From positions 62,001-126,000 of the forward strand of contig JAPETS010000055.1 in the NCBI GenBank assembly GCA_026023565.1: a stretch of 64,000 nt of DNA. The letters are read 5' to 3'. Position numbers and translations under genes: made by a program. The DNA comes from Cirrosporium novae-zelandiae. Lineage: Eukaryota. Numbering within the stretch: position 1 is the stretch's first letter; the number at the start of each line of letters is the position of its first letter. The notes under the pieces are model-generated. The model made no database searches. It was not told where the DNA came from and saw only the letters and a program-made list of their open reading frames with translations. Positions 24,701 through 45,765 of this stretch are shown here, in pieces.

Positions 24701-25683
24701 CCTTGAGCTACCGCTACACCCGTCCGCTGTAGATCAGGGTCAACCATGTAACCCGGCACGCCCAGTCGCCTAGTCACCCAGTCACCCAACAATCAATTCA
24801 TTTGCAGCATGCTATTTTCTATCTTTCCTATTTGGAAAACCCATGTATAATCCCACACATTTGAATGGAAAACCCTTCTGTGTGAAATGTGCCACCCGTT
24901 TAGTAGTCAAGTCGTAGTCTTTTTTCCTTCATCCAATAGCCTGGCTAAAAAAGGGTCTATCAGATCCCCGTTTCGTAAACCACTGCTGCAGAATTCAACA
25001 GTCTCCACCGCTATTTCCAGCAACTGCTAACAACTGTTAATACATTGCTTCATGTAGCGAGAAGCGGCTACTTGCTGTCAAGAGATGTGATGCTAAGGTG
25101 CTATGATCCTGACATGCAAATTCAAACGCCTTCGACTGCAAGTGCGGAACTGGAGCAACACTGCATTCCTGTGACCTGGACGCCCCGAGCCGTCAACAAC
25201 CTCGACCATTGTTCCAATGCGCCCAATGTGGTTTGTAGGGATCTACTATTGATCGAGGCATCTGGAGAAAGCCATTTGCATGCACTTTCTCATTAGGTTG
25301 CTCTAGTCCTGATGATCCAACCTTTGATCCAGTTTTAATTCCTTTTTGCCGTCTCTTTACTTTACATTTTCCTTATCCGCAATCTATTATTCAAACATCT
25401 TTCCCTCTTCAACTCTACTCAGAAAAACCAAAGTAAACATCATATCAGTATTACTGAAACAACTCCTCTGCTACCAAACTACAAGCCAGATATACCCCAA
25501 GGGATCTAATCTATTGCGCTCAGCAGCATCTAATCGGTAAGCTGAAACAGGTGGCTTTGACTTGGCTGACACGGGTTGAAGTTGTGAATACGAGTGCTGA
25601 CAAGGTCATGATAGAATATTAACTAAGCTATTCACTCTTATCTCGACTTTCAATTCCATACACTATCACCAAAATTACCAAAA

Positions 25684-28600
25684 ATGGTCTTCCTCAGAAG
25701 AAGGTGGCGATCATCGCGATCATCATGGCCACCCAAACCAACCGTCGAAGATGAGGTTGATGCCTTGTCTCACGAGGTCATCAAAACCCCCAAATATGCT
25801 GTATCTGATAGTGGCGATGATGTGCAATCACGAGGGAGTATTGATCAGACGCCCATAATCCTCGACGTCGATCCGCCGATCACTACTCCATCAGCCACCG
25901 ATACCTCGTCGCAATTTTCCAGTACTCCATCTTTGCGAACCGAATCATCAAGCGAGACCTTGGAGCCCAAGACACCAGCAGATGAGAGTAATGATAGTCA
26001 AGACCTAAGATATGTCTGGAAGCCTGAACCAAATATTGGAATTCCCATTTCGTATGACGACCCTGCATCATCGAAATCAAGAACTTCGAAACGCCATGGT
26101 AATCGTGGGAGGTCTCCGAGCTTACACATCAACACTTCCATTGATCCAGAGATCAGCCATGTTGGTAATCTAAGGTTGAGAGAACCCTCTCCATACTCCA
26201 TATCTAAACCGGACAAAGCTATACGATTTTCCACAGAATCTCTTCTTTCTCCTGACACGCCAAGACAAAGGTCTTCACGGTCAGAGAAAAGACGTCCTGA
26301 TTCTGCTGTAGTTGAATCTCTACCTCGATCAGATGACTCGAGTGACTCCGACCATAGAAGAAGAAGGCATAGGCATAGCCACTCATTGTCGACAGAAAAG
26401 CAATACCCACCTCTCAAAAGTGATGAGCTGGATCTTAGGCGCTTTGCAGCTGCTTCCGAATTAAGAAAGCAGGCTGATCACCACGCTTTAGTGTCAGAAC
26501 GAGCATCCGAAAAATCCACTCGACATGGACATAGAAAAGCAAGAAGCTCACCGAAATCATCACCCCGAGAAGAACGATCCGACCCTCTCGAGAGTAGATT
26601 GAAAGACACGCCCCGTCCAACAATGTGGAATAAAACCAAACATTCTTCATTTCTTAAGTCAGAACGACCAGTTTTGACAACTAATCGCCATTCATATGAA
26701 AGTTCTCCAGTCACTGTGCATCAGGATTTCGATACGTCCTCTCTTAATAGGCCTTCAAGCTTTGTGTATTCAGAAGAAAGGCACAGGTCTAGCGTCGCAC
26801 CATCCCTAACAGACTTGCCAGAGAAATACGTCGAGGCCCGATTTGAACTGCCGCATGACGACGAGCCGCCGTCCGGTTATTCGACCCCCAAAGCATCTCC
26901 CCGAGATTCTCCAAGCACTTCACCAGCTTTATTAGATACACCACTAAGAGAGGAGAGTTCGAGGCGGAGTGCTACTTTGCCTATTTCAAAGAGCCGCTCT
27001 GAGCATTCCCCAAAAGACAATAAGCTAGCATCTTCAAATCCTCTCATTACGCTCATCGACCATGGTTTCCAACGATCTTGGAGAGCAGAGACATCTCCAC
27101 CGGAATACTACACAAAGCATACTATTGCCTCTGCGCCTCTGGAGCACCGAATTTCTATACCTAGTTCGCGGATTGAATCTCGCCATCCGTCACCAGCTCC
27201 AACATCTAGAACAAGTTCTCGGACGAATTCACTCTCATCAGACGATGGTCATAGCCATCACCACCATCATCATCGACGGGTATCAAGCCGAGGAATGCCA
27301 TTACAATCCCCACTGACCCAACAGTCGACGCGAGTTCCAAGCACCTCGTCGCCGACTCCCCCGACTAGCTCCGATGAGAAATCATTCAGCTCAAGCACCT
27401 ATTTACCTGATGCTAGAGATCTTCGTGTACGAGAGATTAATCGTGAATTGCATACAAATGCTCACTCACGCCCATATAACACGCAGCCCCTAGTTCCAAC
27501 CCATAGGCCGCAACTGCCACCGAAATCGCCATCCTATTCTTCTGACGAGAATTACGTCGTTCGATATCGGCCAGTCGGGTTACAAATGACAACCTCAACA
27601 TCCCCGAAATATCAAACAACATCATGTGATTATGTGACAGGATATCCAACACCGCCTTCTTCAGCAGATCAACTATCGAGACATACATCTAGTACCTCTA
27701 TTCCAACACAGCAACAAGAAATACTACCTAGCAAGCCATTGATGATAAGTGATCTGCCGAAGATGCCGCAAAAAGCTTGTGATACTCCGAGTGCTCTAGC
27801 ACAGACCAACGCGGATGGGTATTTCGCAAGCCATCATACCCCTCCTATGCACTATTCAGTGAGTGTCTATACACACAATGAACCAGAGCAGGAAGTCTAT
27901 TCCAAGCGTCTACCTTCAGGGCCGGTGACCCCGACCGTAGTAACCCCTGGACGGTCTGAAGGTCCATCACAATCCTTGGTTCCATATGGTACTACCTCGA
28001 TTTCGGAGCCCATCCAGAAGACCCCCAGCTCATCTCTACCACCATGTCCGAGAGCAAACTGGGCATCGGACGAGTATGACTGGCTCACACTTCCTGGCAT
28101 CCCTAACTTTGATGTTTGTCCTTCTTGTTATGAGCACTTGGCTGCCGCTGGCTTCAGACATGACTTCGTCCCCTCTCCACTCCGTCCTAGAGGCTACGAA
28201 TCCCGTTGCCAATTTTCTCTTCCTTGGATCCGCATGGCTTGGCTCCAAACCTTAAACTATCGTCGCCCAAACCTTGATCTCATCTACGCAATTGCCACGA
28301 ACTTCGTCTCATGCCCCCCATGCCCAGGGCGCCATGCAGATTGCCGCACATGGTATCGTATCCCTGATCCCGACAACGGTCTGTTAGTTCCAAACTTCGA
28401 CGTCTGTTCGTCCTGTATCGGCAACATTGAAATACTGATGCCGAGTCTCCGAGGCGCTTTTCGTCCATGTCAACATTTGGTAGGGCAAGAACGTACCTGT
28501 GATCTTCGCACAGATAGCAACCGCTTTGCCACGTATATCGATCTCCTCGAGGCCGCAGCCCTAGAAGCTCGTGCAACGCGCCGGCCCCCAAACCTTCGGC

Positions 28601-29037
28601 ACTTTGCTAATGCGGCACGCAAAATAGCCTCGATCCGTGAATGCCCTCGCGACGACATGCTACCCAATGCAGTTTGGTACCTTGCCCCCAGCATTCCAAC
28701 GCTTACTATTTGCGAGGAATGCTATGACAACTTCATATTTCCAGACGTCAACACACCCATTGGGTCACTGATTACTGGAACACCACATTTAGTTCGAGAC
28801 ACGGCGAGCTGTCAGATGTATAGTGAGAAAATGAGAAAAATCTGGACCGACGCGGTTAAAGAGAACGATGTGGAACTTTTGAGAACGGCATCTAAGAAAA
28901 GATGGGGGGTGCAAAAGTGGCTGGATGACAAAAAAAGGGATACTATGGAACGGGAGAATGAAGAGAGGATGCTGTACAGACTCGGGGATGAACGGAGGCT
29001 TGGGGGTAGAGTTGGGTGTATTGAGGAGGGTTATTAG
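25684..29037 (+). CDS. Uncharacterised 1117-aa Ser/Arg/Pro-rich protein with three C-terminal Cys-rich repeats
   Basis: Long single-exon ORF; low-complexity N-terminal ~780 aa, then three CP(R/G)...W...CxxC...C units. 5'UTR intron 25537-25614 (GTAAGC..GCTGAC..TAG). Confidence 0.85.
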   Translation: MVFLRRRWRSSRSSWPPKPTVEDEVDALSHEVIKTPKYAVSDSGDDVQSRGSIDQTPIILDVDPPITTPSATDTSSQFSSTPSLRTESSSETLEPKTPADESNDSQDLRYVWKPEPNIGIPISYDDPASSKSRTSKRHGNRGRSPSLHINTSIDPEISHVGNLRLREPSPYSISKPDKAIRFSTESLLSPDTPRQRSSRSEKRRPDSAVVESLPRSDDSSDSDHRRRRHRHSHSLSTEKQYPPLKSDELDLRRFAAASELRKQADHHALVSERASEKSTRHGHRKARSSPKSSPREERSDPLESRLKDTPRPTMWNKTKHSSFLKSERPVLTTNRHSYESSPVTVHQDFDTSSLNRPSSFVYSEERHRSSVAPSLTDLPEKYVEARFELPHDDEPPSGYSTPKASPRDSPSTSPALLDTPLREESSRRSATLPISKSRSEHSPKDNKLASSNPLITLIDHGFQRSWRAETSPPEYYTKHTIASAPLEHRISIPSSRIESRHPSPAPTSRTSSRTNSLSSDDGHSHHHHHHRRVSSRGMPLQSPLTQQSTRVPSTSSPTPPTSSDEKSFSSSTYLPDARDLRVREINRELHTNAHSRPYNTQPLVPTHRPQLPPKSPSYSSDENYVVRYRPVGLQMTTSTSPKYQTTSCDYVTGYPTPPSSADQLSRHTSSTSIPTQQQEILPSKPLMISDLPKMPQKACDTPSALAQTNADGYFASHHTPPMHYSVSVYTHNEPEQEVYSKRLPSGPVTPTVVTPGRSEGPSQSLVPYGTTSISEPIQKTPSSSLPPCPRANWASDEYDWLTLPGIPNFDVCPSCYEHLAAAGFRHDFVPSPLRPRGYESRCQFSLPWIRMAWLQTLNYRRPNLDLIYAIATNFVSCPPCPGRHADCRTWYRIPDPDNGLLVPNFDVCSSCIGNIEILMPSLRGAFRPCQHLVGQERTCDLRTDSNRFATYIDLLEAAALEARATRRPPNLRHFANAARKIASIRECPRDDMLPNAVWYLAPSIPTLTICEECYDNFIFPDVNTPIGSLITGTPHLVRDTASCQMYSEKMRKIWTDAVKENDVELLRTASKKRWGVQKWLDDKKRDTMERENEERMLYRLGDERRLGGRVGCIEEGY

Positions 29038-34841: not shown

Positions 34842-35555
34842 GGTGGAAACTTGGGGCACTGGTTCCGGCGGGGTCTAATGAGATGGGAGTATTGTAGTTA
34901 AAGCTTGAACTGCCACAATATTGAATAGTTGAATATCAATTTGTAGAAGCTGGAGAGTTTGAGAGGAGAGGGTGCCAATCTGCGAGCTCCAATTGGAGAC
35001 CTCCGTTGAAAGAAGAGGGAATGATGGAGATAACAAGTTAAGGTGGTTGTCGTTAAGGGCCTCGATTGATCCGTCCGTTGCAGTGCTACAAGGGCACGAA
35101 GGGCTTTTGGTGTTGGTGGAGTGACGTACCGGCCGATACAGCCTAACCTGGTCCGGTACGTAAGTGGCAGTCTATTTCGGTTACACCTCAATCCCAACTT
35201 ACCAACTGATTCGACAGCAGCTATTCAACCACCACAAATAACTCACAACCACTGCGAACTCGGATTATTTCTGACATTTTATTTGTTTTCGGATTATTTT
35301 CGATCAAATATATTTACTTGTTCTACGTTTGGGTCGTCAGCTTTCGTTTTCGAGATGCGGAGAACCGAAAGTTCTGACAGACTCTCTATCACCTCTCCGT
35401 GAAGTCACTGTCACGTCAAGCAACGTTTTATAAAAAACAATGATAGAGTTCTAAGAAGAGATGATTCAGTAACAGCAATTGATATTAACTTCCGGAAGTG
35501 AACTATATTTTGAAGGCTTCCTTAGGTCTAGGAAATCACCTTCACGCGACAAGAC

Positions 35556-36856
35556 ATGCCCCGAAAGCTTCCTTGGCTCCAAAGCGACCAGACGGGAGCA
35601 TCAAGTCCTGACGAGTCAATAAGGACCGTCAAGAGACGCCGCGTTGAAGATGATTCTTTGAGTTCTGACACTGCGAGCTCACTTTCTCGACACTCTAGAC
35701 AGCGACCTGGTAAGTGGAACCTCATTTCGACGCCTTCAGAGCTAATACATAAATGCAGGCCGCGAGCCTTCTACTTCACCTCCGCGAGAGCCTCCAGGGG
35801 AGGAGTACGTTGTCAACCTCCTAACCGGTTCGAACGTGGATCCTAACGAATATTAGGTTTATGCGAGATGGCATCGAACAAGATGACCTCTACAGAATGG
35901 TCGAAGACGAGTTCCTAGCAGTCGCCCAAAGTTTTACCCAGCACTTACATCATGCCGAATACATAAGGCTGAAAAATCTCATCAGCGCCGACAAGCAATC
36001 GATGATTGATGATATTGCCCGACCGACGGACAACATTACGACTATGCGCGCGCAACTCCAAAAGAAGAATTTGCGAGAGGATCGTGCCGCAAAGACCAAG
36101 GCAGCTTTGCAGAAAATGGGACTTGCGACAGACAAGAAAAACAATGAAGATTCCGATTTGAGTGACGATGAAGGGCTATGGGATGGAACGGCCTTGAAAG
36201 GATTCATGACTGGTCCTCGTAAGACGCAGGCTTCACTTACTGGCTTGCATGGAATCAAATCAGCTACTCGGGCAGCTGCGGGATTTTCGAAGGCTCAGAC
36301 TAAGCCGTCACCAACTAGAGTAAAACAAATCCATATACGTGCCGGTTCTTCTAGCGTCCAGGACACCATTTCCAAGTCGTCAAAGTCTCGGCGTCACGTC
36401 AATTTTGCCAACGAAGAATCGACCACTGGGGACGATGACGATCTGGATGATATCGCTCCATGCCGTATTAGACAGAGGTCGACGGTTCCTGTTAAGGTCG
36501 AAAAAGAAAGCCCCCCAGCAGCCCGAACGATCTTCAAAGGATTAATAAAAGCCGAGAGCCCAGACCCCGAGGTCATCCCAAGTCATGATCAAGATCGTTC
36601 TCGATTTAATGCTGGAAGTAAAACCTCCAAAGCACCAGGTCGTGAACCAATGTCAAGCCATAGACCTACTTTCAAATTCGATCTGTCAGACGATGACGAT
36701 GAAGATTCTAAAGTATTTACTCGACGCCCAGCTCTGAAATCTACCTCTAAACACTCCATAAACGGGATTAAGTCTACTAGAATTAAACATTCACCGGACC
36801 AAGGCGAGAACAAGAAGAGGGATAGAACCCAAGAGATTCCCACTTTTCTTGTGTGA
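35556..36856 (+). CDS. Conserved-looking fungal hypothetical protein (MPRKLPW...YRMVEDEF), 3 exons
   Basis: Introns 35710-35758 and 35805-35856 join MPRKLPW, EPSTSPPREPP and DDLYRMVEDEFLAVAQSFTQHLHHAEY in frame; ends EIPTFLV*. Confidence 0.85.
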
Positions 36857-36991
36857 AACTAATATGCGTATTGGACTGTTTATTTACTTTGTGGGACCAT
36901 GTTCATTCGTCATAAATTCATTGGTAACAGCCACTTTCTCCCCCTCCGGTGTCCTCCCCCTCCTGTTCCCCCTCCCCGCCGACAGACGAAC

Positions 36992-37501
36992 TCAGTTGCC
37001 GGCCGTAGCCGGACCGGACTCCCCCCCGAAATTGGGGGCTCTGCTGAGCCGGATACTGACGTTCCGGAGAGGAATCGTCACCATCTCACGTCTGGGCCGC
37101 CTAGACCCCGTCCTCCCCTCCCTGGCCATGAGGGCCGATCTAAAATTCAGAAGGATTGGTTAGCATCAAGTTATATGAATTGAATCACTTAAGGATGCTT
37201 CAAGTTTTCGATACAATTCAAAGGATCAAGTAGATGAAAGCACTTACTCATCGTTGTCCATCCCCCCGATTGGGAAGCCCTCCTCGTGGCGGAAGTTGGT
37301 GGGGGCGCTCTATTAGAGGGAATACTAGTCAGCTAATTGCCTTTGGAGCCAAAACCAGACCAAAATAACGATCGATATATGAATAACACCCAGGAGAGCA
37401 AAGGGATCATCACTGAAACTTACGATCTTGAGTGGCTTCTTCTCTCCGAAGCAAAAGAGTCGGCAAAGCCGAGCCAACAAAGCCTTGGTCTTTTGACCCA
37501 T
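36992..37501 (-). CDS. 95-aa three-exon protein with N-terminal acylation signals and CRIB-like motif (not in ORF track)
   Basis: Exons 37501-37424, 37309-37248 and 37139-36992. Both donors are GTAAGT, branch sites GCTGAC and GCTAAC, TAG acceptors, phases consistent. Protein: MGQKTKALLARLCRLFCFGEKKPLKISAPTNFRHEEGFPIGGMDNDESALMAREG...PATAGN*. Confidence 0.75.
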
Positions 37502-37606
37502 TTTTATTTTGAGAGGTGTTTCGGTATGGGTATGTTCAAGTGTCGTAAAAGGAAGTTATATAACGTCCGGTTATGGACGTCGAATGATTGACGGTGGATT
37601 GCTCTC

Positions 37607-38260
37607 TAAGTACAAGTGAGAGGCTTGATATATGTTGGCTTAATTTGTTCGAGAAAGCGTTTCTGTACAAGTGAGAAGTGTGAGAAGTGTGATATATCTT
37701 GGAATGACTTATTCGAGAGAGCGTTTCTTAGACAAGTGAGAAGTGTGATATGTCTTGAAATGATTTGTTCAAGAAAGTGTTGCTTGCACAAATGAGAGAC
37801 GTGAGAAGCGTGATATATCTTGAAATGATTTGTTCGAGAAAGCGTTACTTGAGAATAATGGGCGAGAGGTATGTTGGTTTGATTATTCGAAAAAGCGTTG
37901 CTTACACAAATGAAGGACGTGATATATCTTGAAGTGATTATTCGAGAAGGCGTTGCTTGCACAAGGGAGAAGCTCGATATATCTTGGATCGATTATTCAA
38001 GAAAGCCTTGTTTGAGAATAATGGACGAGAGATATGTTGGATCAATTATCCGAGAAAGCGCTGCTTACACAGGTGAGGGGCGTGATATATCTTAGATCGA
38101 GTATTCAAGAAAGAGTTACTTGAGAATAAGGGACAAGGCATGTGTTGGATCGATTATTCGGAGAAACCGTCTCTCACACAAGTGAAGAAGCCTGATATAC
38201 CTTGGATCGATGTATTCGAAGAAAGCGTTGCTTGAGAATATAATGGACGAGAGAGATGTG
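37607..38260. repeat. Degenerate tandem array of about 11-12 units of 53-65 bp, two subtypes
   Basis: TTC(G/A)AGAAAG-like anchors at 37648, 37712, 37768, 37833, 37886, 37941, 37996, 38049, 38104, 38157 and 38215. Confidence 0.9.
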
Positions 38261-42766: not shown

Positions 42767-45765
42767 TTAGGCATCACGAACGAGACGTGCAGTGCACCAA
42801 GGATAGAGATAGTTACGTTGGTACCAGTTCATGCTATTAATCGTCAGTCAATGTAATCACACTGAAGATAGTGAGGTCTTATGAGGTCTTACAAGGTCTT
42901 TCGTCCAGCAAGGCGCGGATGAGTGGCCCAGGAACCACCAAGGACAATATTATGTTTACCGTCAAAGAAATCGGCTACTCCAAGTCAGTCACTAGCACCG
43001 AAAACGAGTTTCATTGGGCCATACCGGTATATCCAGGATAAATATCCATGGCCTTGAATCCTTCATATTCCTCCAGTGTTGAGCTAGTCCATTCCCAAGC
43101 ACCTCCAGTCTGTCCTTGTCCGGAAAGCTTATTTCCGTTCTGAGTGACAGGTGTGGGATGCCAGTTATGGAGACCTACATTGCAGCCTTCAAGGTTCGTA
43201 TAGAGCCGGTGAAGGTCTGGATGCTGCTCAGCACCGGGGAATTTAGCTAGATCAGGATATGACGGTGGTGTTTCTTCTACTCCGTCATTGGAAAGATGCC
43301 TGTTTAAAATTAGCCACAAGGCTATTTTGGACGACATCAAACCTTACCCGTTCACTGCTGGAATTGCTTTCTGCTGAACTCGTGCTGCTTTGTCGACGCA
43401 TTGCTCATCTACATAGTTGTAGATGCTCTTGACTTCTTCCATGGTCGGGATGCGTCCGTTCATCCACTTGGCACATCCTGCCAGTTCATCATAGGAAGCA
43501 ATGACTGGCCAATCCAATACATGTTCGAGTGGAACAGGTCCGTACACCGTCTTGACGAACTTACCTTGGAGATATTTATTTAGACGTGTTCCATTTTCAA
43601 AATCATAGGGTACTAGAGGTGGTGTTGCTAATCCGTCAGATGTCCCATTTGGGCTAGTGATGGCCTTCTCTGTCCAGGAAGCAGGAATTTGGTCTTGATG
43701 AGTTTCCTCCAAATACTTTGCATATTCACCATTAGTAATGACCCGAGCTTTGGCCACGAAAGCGGGTACATCTTTCACCCTAGTAGGCCCTTCATTATCC
43801 CAGCCGAAATACTGGCCTGGTTGGAGATTGTTAGAAGTATAAGGCCCGTCGAATCCAAGCGTGATTTTGTTCGCGGGAATGTTAATCCACTCGTTGGGAA
43901 CGGCATTTGCTGCAGCTTCTTTAGCCAGGGCTTTAAAATCCGGCCTCTCTGTACCCGGAGGAGGGAGCATTTTCTCGCTCTGTAACAACATATAGAGCAG
44001 AGTCTCCAGATGCATAAGGTCATGCTCGAATCCAAGCCAGAGAGCCCGGCCGACTCGCCGGTTGTTCTCGGCTGCTTTGGTGGCGAAAAGTTCTCTAACT
44101 CGAGACCTTACCTTTTCCTGGTATTCTAAAATCTCCTCTACAGGAGGCCATTCGTCAGGAATTTCGCTGTGAGAATGACACTTCTCTGGATTATCGACAT
44201 CGGGGTCAATCCCACGTTCGAAAATCGATCGATACGAGGTTGGCTCTGTTGATTTCCCTTCAGTAGCACGAGTCAAGTGGATGTCTAAGAAGGTGGGAAT
44301 ATGACCTAAATAGAAGATACATGCGTTGCGAAGTTTGATTGGCTTTGAAAGTAGCTTGTCGTGTGGAATCATGCCTTGGCTAACAGTATTCCAAGCTTTC
44401 CAGAGGGTTTCGAACTCTTCGAGAGTTGGCACGGGGGTAGCTGCATATTCCTCTGGTCGTAAAGACCAAGAGACGGCTGGTAGTGTTAACATATGGATAT
44501 CTAATACAGGTATTAGTGGTCAACATCTAAAAGATTATCATCTGCTAAAGGAGATTTAGGTCGGCTGTAAACCCGCGAACAGGGCACCGTTTTTGTGTTG
44601 ATAGAGAGTTGAGATGTGTAATTATCTTGAAAATGTGGAACACGCTCAGTAACGCTTGTTGAGCTTATCTTAAGGGTATACTGCACTTACGATAGTCATC
44701 ACTGCTATTTCCAAAGGAGGCAGTTTCGGCAAGTCCTGCCTTTTTCCAAAGCTCTTCACTCTGAATGGCCGAATACTTATAACTCTCCTCAATACGAATC
44801 ATCTCGCCTTTCTTGAGGTAAATACTCTTAAACTGGACGTCTTCAAGGGGAACGCAGAAAACTTCATGACGACTTTCTTGTTCATTGTAACGGCCAATTA
44901 CCTTCCACTTTTCGAGATCAAAGGCATCTTTGCGAAGGAGCTTGTTGGCGTGTATAAAGCCATTGAGAATGAACCTGTGAGTAACGCCTTCACGATCATT
45001 ATAAGCATGGAACACGCGATCACTGGACTGACAAGCATCGACGCCAACAAGCATAGAATCAGTGTGATCCATAATCTTGGCAAACTGAGCAAGAAATTCT
45101 ATAGCGTCTTCACGAGTGAAGTTGCCAATGGATGATCCCAAAGAGAGTATGCATTTAGGCTTACGCCTGTTCTCTGGTTGGGAAAGCCAGGCAAGCCCAT
45201 CATCGTAAGTCCCATGAAGACCAAAACATTTCACATGCTTGAATGAAGAAGTGGAGACGGCAAGAAATGTGCGTTCAAGTTCACTCTCCGACAAATCAAG
45301 AGCATAATACTCAACGTTCTTCTGGGCTCGCTCAAGAGCTTGGAGTAGGATGTTAACCTTGCGGAGATTCCTGAACCATTGTCAGCGCTCAAATTCGAGA
45401 CAATTGGGGAGAAATATTGAAGGTACTTGCGCTTGTTACCAAGCCAAGGTTAAATAGGTTTGCTAGACTTACCCACTTCCCAATTCAATTATGCGGGTTC
45501 CAGGTTGGATTTTATTAGCGATATCCTCGGCATGACGTTGGAAAACTTCGATTTCAGCATTTGTGAGGTAATATTCGTCCAAATATGTGATATCCTCGAA
45601 CAATTTCAAGCCCAATTGATCGTATAGAAGAAGAGTTGGAAAGGTCTTTTCTTTGCCGTTCTCAGGATGAAGGCCTTTAATCAAGTCCTCCAGGAGAGTT
45701 TCTTCAACCTTAGTACGGCGAATGTCAATGATCTCTACGCTCGTACCTTGGGTCATGGGTGCCAT
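42767..45765 (-). CDS. EGT1: Ergothioneine biosynthesis protein 1 (EgtD-like histidine methyltransferase fused to an EgtB-like sulfoxide synthase)
   Basis: PTLLLYD..GLKLFEDIT..EYYLT, IELGSG, LGSSIGNF, IEESYKY; YLGHIPTF, FERGIDPDVD, EHDLMHLE (Fe ligands); FGE-like WDNE, GGAWEWTSS, GGSWATHPR and NWYQRNY. Stop at 42767-42769. Confidence 0.95.

Follow-up and report, generated by a model that had tools for sequence, protein, structure and literature searches.

A three-exon microprotein gene of Cirrosporium novae-zelandiae with a CRIB-like half-motif, tentatively read as encoding a minimal membrane-held binder of Cdc42 or Rac

The window analysed here, a 64-kb stretch of Cirrosporium novae-zelandiae DNA taken in its whole length, carries on its minus strand a small gene of three exons and two introns, which opens with an ATG at 37501 and whose spliced coding sequence of 288 nt specifies a protein of 95 aa (Table 1). 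The donor GTAAGT, a CTRAC branch site and a YAG acceptor are all present in both introns, and our reconstruction exactly reproduced the exon borders, the three exons and the 95-aa product proposed by the initial annotation, together with the canonical splice signals that it had claimed. Both introns hold in-frame stops if retained; in the case of intron 2, retention leads to an immediate stop in the frame and a product of 47 aa. An alternative acceptor of intron 2 (a YAG ending at 37122, with shared donor and branch site) gives an in-frame isoform of 89 aa, which is the 95-aa form minus six residues from the start of exon 3. The ATG lies in the context AAAAATGG, which was called favourable, and an upstream ATG is absent within the last 70 nt.

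Table 1. Features of the small gene and its immediate flanks, with positions counted in the window
Feature	Position	Strand	Length and phase	Description
Tandem repeat array, about 55 bp	37648..38233	.		Next to the putative promoter on its upstream side; begins some 147 nt before the ATG
TATA-like hexamer	37557..37562	minus		61 nt upstream of the ATG; a match in sequence only
Exon 1	37501..37424	minus	78 nt	M1-I26; basic Cys-bearing N-terminal helix (predicted), K21 K22 K25
Intron 1	37423..37310	minus	114 nt, phase 0	GTAAGT...GCTGAC...TAG; GC 0.40
Exon 2	37309..37248	minus	62 nt	From S27 through the second base of the E47 codon
Intron 2	37247..37140	minus	108 nt, phase 2	GTAAGT...GCTAAC...TTTTAG; GC 0.32
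Exon 3	37139..36992	minus	148 nt including TGA	Residues 47-95; basic Gly/Arg/Ser-rich disordered tail
TAAATA, polyadenylation-signal-like hexamer	36881..36886	minus		105 nt past the stop codon; based on the hexamer match alone

The repeat array upstream of the putative promoter has its repeat core nowhere else in the window. Tandem Repeats Finder delimits 7.7 copies with a period of 55 at 37809..38233, and the repeat core occurs in nine copies between 37648 and 38117, against 0.49 expected; the array might represent a minisatellite or a set of promoter elements. On the downstream side lies a convergent neighbour on the plus strand (35532-36856), an ORF of 343 aa with a strict-consensus intron of 147 nt (35710-35856) and no Pfam family. 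As the stop codons of the two are 135 nt apart, the 3' ends of the small gene and its neighbour must abut or overlap. The interval in which the small gene lies is bounded by this neighbour and by an aldehyde dehydrogenase gene. The GC content of the stretch 36850-37150 is 0.567, compared with 0.449 for the window, and plus-strand ORFs of 133 and 106 aa overlap exon 3 within it; because this DNA is GC-rich and has several long frames on both strands, an open frame here is no coding evidence. Elsewhere in the window, adjacent ORFs on the minus strand (43344-45381) contain Methyltransf_33 (histidine-specific methyltransferase), DinB_2 and FGE-sulfatase domains, which we take to be the combination known from Egt1, the enzyme of ergothioneine biosynthesis in fungi, and for an uninterrupted ORF of 1136 aa at 25627-29037 on the plus strand Pfam gives no match up to an E of 0.001.

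The structure of the small gene exceeds chance expectation. A scan of the 64-kb window for strict introns (GTAAGT; CTRAC 8-45 nt before YAG; total length 45-160 nt) returned nine candidates, where 300 first-order Markov shuffles averaged 3.55, and two adjacent strict introns on the same strand were seen in 5 of the 300 shuffles. When the models were further restricted to an ATG-initiated frame with two introns, this gene alone in the window reached at least 90 aa; among 400 shuffles, none gave a model of that length and one gave a model of at least 60 aa. The coding sequence has a GC content of 0.615, against 0.40 and 0.32 for the introns, and GC at codon position 3 (73 of 95) is higher than at positions 1 and 2 taken together (103 of 190; p 0.00027). 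This periodicity is carried by exons 1 and 2 alone (p 0.0011) and is weak in exon 3 alone (p 0.039); in exon 2, the proposed frame has a GC3 of 0.90, and the other two frames have 0.65 and 0.40.

These results bear directly on the alternative that the gene is non-coding, namely that it was over-predicted ab initio, on a non-coding spliced transcript or on none, and that its last exon is GC-rich DNA that is open by chance. Two consecutive consensus introns in an ATG-initiated frame, the codon-position periodicity, the sharp contrast in GC between exons and introns, and the TATA-like element combined with the favourable ATG context all argue against such an over-prediction, and we consider it unlikely; it does, however, fit several properties of the 3' part of the gene and of its codon usage. 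The codon log-odds score, trained on 13 ORFs of the window, is 0.054 per codon, which is above 99% of non-coding-frame chunks yet at only the 8th percentile among coding chunks, and the GC3 of the coding sequence (0.76) lies outside the range of 0.40-0.59 found for 17 ORFs of the window and is far from that of the neighbouring genes. Codon-usage scoring has little power here, because the genes of the window have a GC3 near 0.48 and show little bias. Exon 3, with its stop left out, has a codon score of about 0 in frame, its DNA is GC-rich, and two frames of the plus strand, antisense to the gene, are stop-free across the whole exon, so that the model is least secure in its C-terminal half. The short distance of 135 nt between its stop codon and that of the convergent gene is a further point on the side of over-prediction.

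A different kind of alternative is that the locus is a snoRNA host gene, with a box C/D snoRNA in intron 1 and the ORF secondary. Intron 1 has a box C-like GTGATGA at +11 and a box D-like CTGA 19 nt before the acceptor, about 75 nt apart, but the presence of the CTGA is explained by its being part of the CTGAC branch site, and a search of intron 1 against Rfam at E up to 10 gave no match. The lone snoRNA match, snoR41 on intron 2, has 16.9 bits against a gathering threshold of 40 and an E of 9.4, and is noise. We regard the snoRNA host as very improbable.

At residues 26-34, right after K21, K22 and K25, the protein reads ISAPTNFRH. This motif exists only when the transcript is spliced, because Ile26 ends exon 1 and Ser27 starts exon 2, and unspliced read-through of exon 1 gives ...KIVSFS.... 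The initial annotation was correct in stating that the motif is formed only by splicing, but it had also taken this as an argument against chance, and the junction-spanning position adds none. The CRIB consensus is given as I-S-x-P-x(2-4)-F-x-H-x-x-H-V-G (PMC8847673), and five of the eight core residues match (I26, S27, P29, F32 and H34). After SAPTNFRH, exon 2 continues with EEGFP at the place of the consensus xxHVG, and G37, F38 and P39 stand at the core positions of the second His, Val and Gly, respectively; the replacement of the second CRIB His, noticed earlier, is thus confirmed as G37. Effectors with one or two variations in the core are described as still binding (PMC8847673), compared with three variations here.

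The Pfam family PBD (PF00786) is the sole family found for the 95-aa protein at E up to 10, with 13.5 bits and an E of 0.092, below the gathering cut-off of 21.3 bits. Its alignment pairs residues 25-35 with profile positions 1-11 of 59 and none with positions 12-59. The HMM search by which a CRIB assignment was to be checked thus places the spliced protein below the cut-off, and hence it is not a Pfam PBD member. The read-through pieces and the single exons matched no Pfam family at all, and the PBD profile was found in none of 14 control genomes, which were taken as prokaryotes. The pattern IS.P.{2,4}F.H is expected 8.7e-5 times per 95-aa protein and 0.13 times per window in six frames; because of the latter value, the motif is bound to turn up by chance when many windows are scanned, and the CRIB argument rests on context rather than on the bare motif.

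These considerations introduce a further alternative, in which the gene is real and expressed but encodes a lineage-restricted orphan microprotein, and ISAPTNFRH is a chance match unrelated to Rho GTPases. The expectation of 0.13 bare motifs per window, the presence of only the first half of a CRIB, the PBD score below the cut-off and the atypical composition with its GC3 of 0.76 are all in keeping with an orphan. In contrast, a motif with so low an expectation in a fixed 95-aa protein, lying directly after a basic stretch as known CRIB effectors have it, is not what a chance match would lead one to expect, and we judge the orphan somewhat unlikely.

The spliced product is letter-identical to a 95-aa "hypothetical protein" that NCBI holds for a Cirrosporium novae-zelandiae MAG, and a word search with exon 1 and its read-through matched one of one candidate, this identical protein. 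The gene had initially been described as hidden and as one that gene finders would miss, and neither description survives: the identical protein is already in NCBI, and since it equals the spliced product letter by letter, a gene finder did call this model. To judge from the MAG record, the NCBI model is probably ab initio, and the record is therefore no evidence of expression.

Searches for relatives were extensive. With phmmer against 1.84 billion representatives (E up to 0.001), the protein found only itself; the 4 candidates of 52-167 aa from a word search with the whole protein likewise yielded no protein but itself, and among longer proteins 0 of 144 candidates scored. No relatives were found among 5.8 billion clusters, phmmer against the PDB gave no match at E up to 10, and of 217 pattern matches on metagenome contigs none was confirmed. 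By a rough estimate, about 36 bits are needed for an E of 0.001 in the library of 1.84 billion, so that orthologues conserved over only about 40 residues at less than 45% identity would escape. In addition, Cirrosporium is described as an isolated lineage within Leotiomyceta (PMC6712537), which makes the absence of close relatives less telling. The lack of homologues in every search is nevertheless what a lineage-restricted orphan would show, and a protein without relatives, whose own model in the ESM Atlas has a mean pLDDT of 0.34, would also be expected of a non-coding over-prediction.

Similarity of another kind was found in the ESM Atlas, which compares protein-language-model features and in which, by calibration, a score below 0.9 is a lead only and the first match reaches at least 0.9 in 4-10% of shuffled proteins. 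For the whole protein, the nearest entries are clusters of hypothetical proteins from Ascomycota, of 92 aa (64 members, 0.93), 114 aa (0.91) and 138 aa (0.88), and CDC42 small effector protein 2 comes next (0.85). When residues 1-47 are compared, a CDC42SE2 cluster (0.84) and CDC42SE1 (0.82) come first, followed by the 92-aa Ascomycota cluster (0.81). The resemblance to CDC42SE is a lead only, because its scores are below 0.9; that CDC42 small effectors are the nearest clusters to residues 1-47 nonetheless weighs against an orphan unrelated to Rho GTPases.

The N-terminus has the features that a membrane-held protein of this kind might use. In an AF2 prediction made with no alignment (mean pLDDT 59.3), residues 3-17 are helical and the rest is coil, and C13 and C17 lie on this predicted helix. 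The M1-G2 start, the basic character of the N-terminus (net charge +6 over residues 1-26, with no acidic residue in 1-19) and the two Cys are all present as claimed at the outset. The description of the N-terminus as amphipathic is fair, in a moderate sense, but unremarkable, because its hydrophobic moment of 0.41-0.52 is reached by 177 of 2000 shuffles of the same residues and is thus not exceptional. N-Myristoylation, which had also been proposed, goes with a small residue at position 6, where Ser or Thr is preferred; here Gly2 is in place but position 6 holds Lys. Among the myristoylated proteins of fungi and mammals, Arg is described as rare at this position (PMC3668125), and by extending this rarity from Arg to Lys we infer that myristoylation is doubtful. 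Cys13 and Cys17 could be S-acylated. The helix at 3-17 would also fit a mitochondrial presequence, and the orphan alternative would take it in this way, as a presequence-like helix or else as a general membrane-surface helix; a predicted helix and residues 1-19 devoid of acidic residues agree with it.

For docking, a stand-in for Cdc42 was obtained from metagenome contigs, which were scanned with a short degenerate effector-loop motif and gave 22 full-length ORFs of 191-197 aa; these were aligned (mean column identity 84%), and the first sequence of the alignment was used. The stand-in belongs to the Pfam Ras family (2e-50), and its best PDB matches are Cdc42 chains, with 338 bits compared with 298 bits for Rac1. 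Residues 16-65 of the small protein were modelled together with the stand-in, GTP and Mg in three runs, and the complexes scored 0.84, 0.83 and 0.82 (median 0.83), against 0.00 for the best of three controls; the runs had a contact agreement of at least 49% and a partner pLDDT of at least 49. The benchmark mark is reached by 51 of 78 solved complexes as against 2 of 108 mismatched pairs, and on eukaryotes by 71 of 105 solved pairs as against 2 of 126 unrelated pairs, counts that are only rough here, since small molecules rode along. The partner is a disordered peptide, a class outside the benchmark.

The confidently modelled interface joins residues 24-37 to residues 25-27, 40-50, 55, 168, 171-172 and 175-176 of the stand-in, which has two extra N-terminal residues, so that the conventional Cdc42 numbering is 23-25, 38-48, 53, 166, 169-170 and 173-174. 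These positions presumably lie where switch I ends, on strand beta2 and on helices alpha1 and alpha5, which together form the face bound by CRIB peptides in solved complexes. That docking puts exactly residues 24-37 on the GTPase, with no comparable score among the controls, is a further point against a chance match in an orphan protein. Because similar complexes have already been solved, however, the score may reflect the memory of the model. As modelled, the docking is evidence of the motif being read as a CRIB and not of binding by the protein, and it leaves Cdc42 and Rac undistinguished. In the modelling of a Cdc42 complex, which the initial annotation had put forward as a check, residues 24-37 thus dock at 0.83, a result qualified in that the GTPase is a stand-in and the score may be memory.

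Among known CRIB systems, the SPEC or CDC42SE proteins are described as small, with a conserved N-terminal region, basic residues before a central CRIB and no other domain (PMC8847673). The Cirrosporium protein is similar in its length of 95 aa and in having K21, K22 and K25 just before I26, and the CDC42SE clusters of the Atlas are of 54-86 aa. It differs in that sequence homology was detected neither by phmmer among the 1.84 billion representatives nor in the PDB, in that the xxHVG half is missing, in its fungal lineage and in its tail of 48 residues rich in Arg, Gly and Ser. In addition, its two Cys are four residues apart, whereas SPEC has an adjacent Cys pair. The earlier description of the protein as SPEC-like therefore holds for its small size, its basic Cys-bearing helix and its CRIB-like motif, but does not extend to kinship, since homology is undetected and PBD membership fails.

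The closest precedent for a half-motif is Par-6, a case of a partial CRIB that still contacts Cdc42; the conserved histidines are missing from its semi-CRIB, and the adjacent PDZ is needed for tight binding. The interaction of the Par-6 semi-CRIB with Cdc42 is referred to as well established (10.1101/2022.08.12.503756). Unlike the 95-aa protein, in which neither domain is found by Pfam at E up to 10, Par-6 has a PB1 and a PDZ. Gic1 and Gic2 are, as is proposed for the Cirrosporium protein, fungal non-kinase binders of Cdc42-GTP with a membrane-binding element beside the CRIB, but they carry a full PBD, are several times longer, and show no homology that we could find to the 95-aa protein. Their complex with Cdc42-GTP may be stabilised through PIP2 of the plasma membrane (PMC6233053), and they are described as lineage-specific to yeasts (PMC5578929). 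Plant RICs are listed as CRIB-motif effectors too (PMC8847673). The likeness to RICs and to the PBD of PAK kinases (Ste20/Cla4) consists in the ISxPxxFxH start, which aligns to PBD positions 1-11, and the difference in a score below the family cut-off, in positions 12-59 being unaligned and in the absence of a kinase domain.

What this analysis itself shows is the anatomy of the gene, its motif, a predicted helix and a docking model. The reading that we tentatively favour, and would place a little below an even call, is that this is a real small gene and that its product is a minimal, CRIB-only binder of active Cdc42 or Rac, kept near the membrane through a basic helix that may be acylated. 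We propose a model whereby a genuine three-exon gene would give a mostly disordered product of 95 residues, whose basic helix 3-17, with Cys13 and Cys17, would anchor it at acidic membranes, possibly with the help of S-acylation. K21, K22 and K25 together with the half-CRIB I26-H34 would pair as a strand with beta2 of GTP-bound Cdc42 or Rac, and would pack on helices alpha1 and alpha5 of the GTPase. Such a minimal CRIB-only binder, devoid of any catalytic or scaffold domain, might act in one of two ways: as a decoy that competes with PAK kinases for the GTPase, or as a small adaptor that stabilises the active GTPase at the membrane. What we infer in this model is that the gene is expressed and that its product binds the membrane and the GTPase, is acylated and has the physiological role described.

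By analogy, and with the same caution, we suggest that the protein may work by architecture like SPEC, RIC and Gic while belonging to none of these families, and we do not claim common descent. A broader speculation, which we hold to be quite improbable, is that filamentous ascomycetes own an unrecognised family of CRIB-only proteins of 90-140 residues, corresponding to the three nearest Ascomycota clusters of the Atlas. Its members would be membrane binders of Cdc42 or Rac with a half-CRIB and a basic acylatable helix, and the family would be a convergent counterpart of SPEC that fills the non-kinase role held by Gic1 and Gic2 in yeasts only.

The fungal CRIB effectors named in the sources cited here are PAK-family kinases and the yeast-restricted Gic1 and Gic2 (PMC8847673, PMC5578929). 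A limited literature search brought up no CRIB-only small effector from filamentous ascomycetes; the functional reading is what this search did not find in print, the gene having been annotated before. Should the motif have arisen by chance, the locus would be just another orphan hypothetical protein. If our favoured reading is true, a half-CRIB lacking the second histidine can stand alone, the protein would offer a natural minimal probe for active Cdc42, and a membrane-tethered binder of Cdc42 or Rac of only 95 residues would be a hyphal polarity regulator of a new type, which either competes for the active GTPase or stabilises it.
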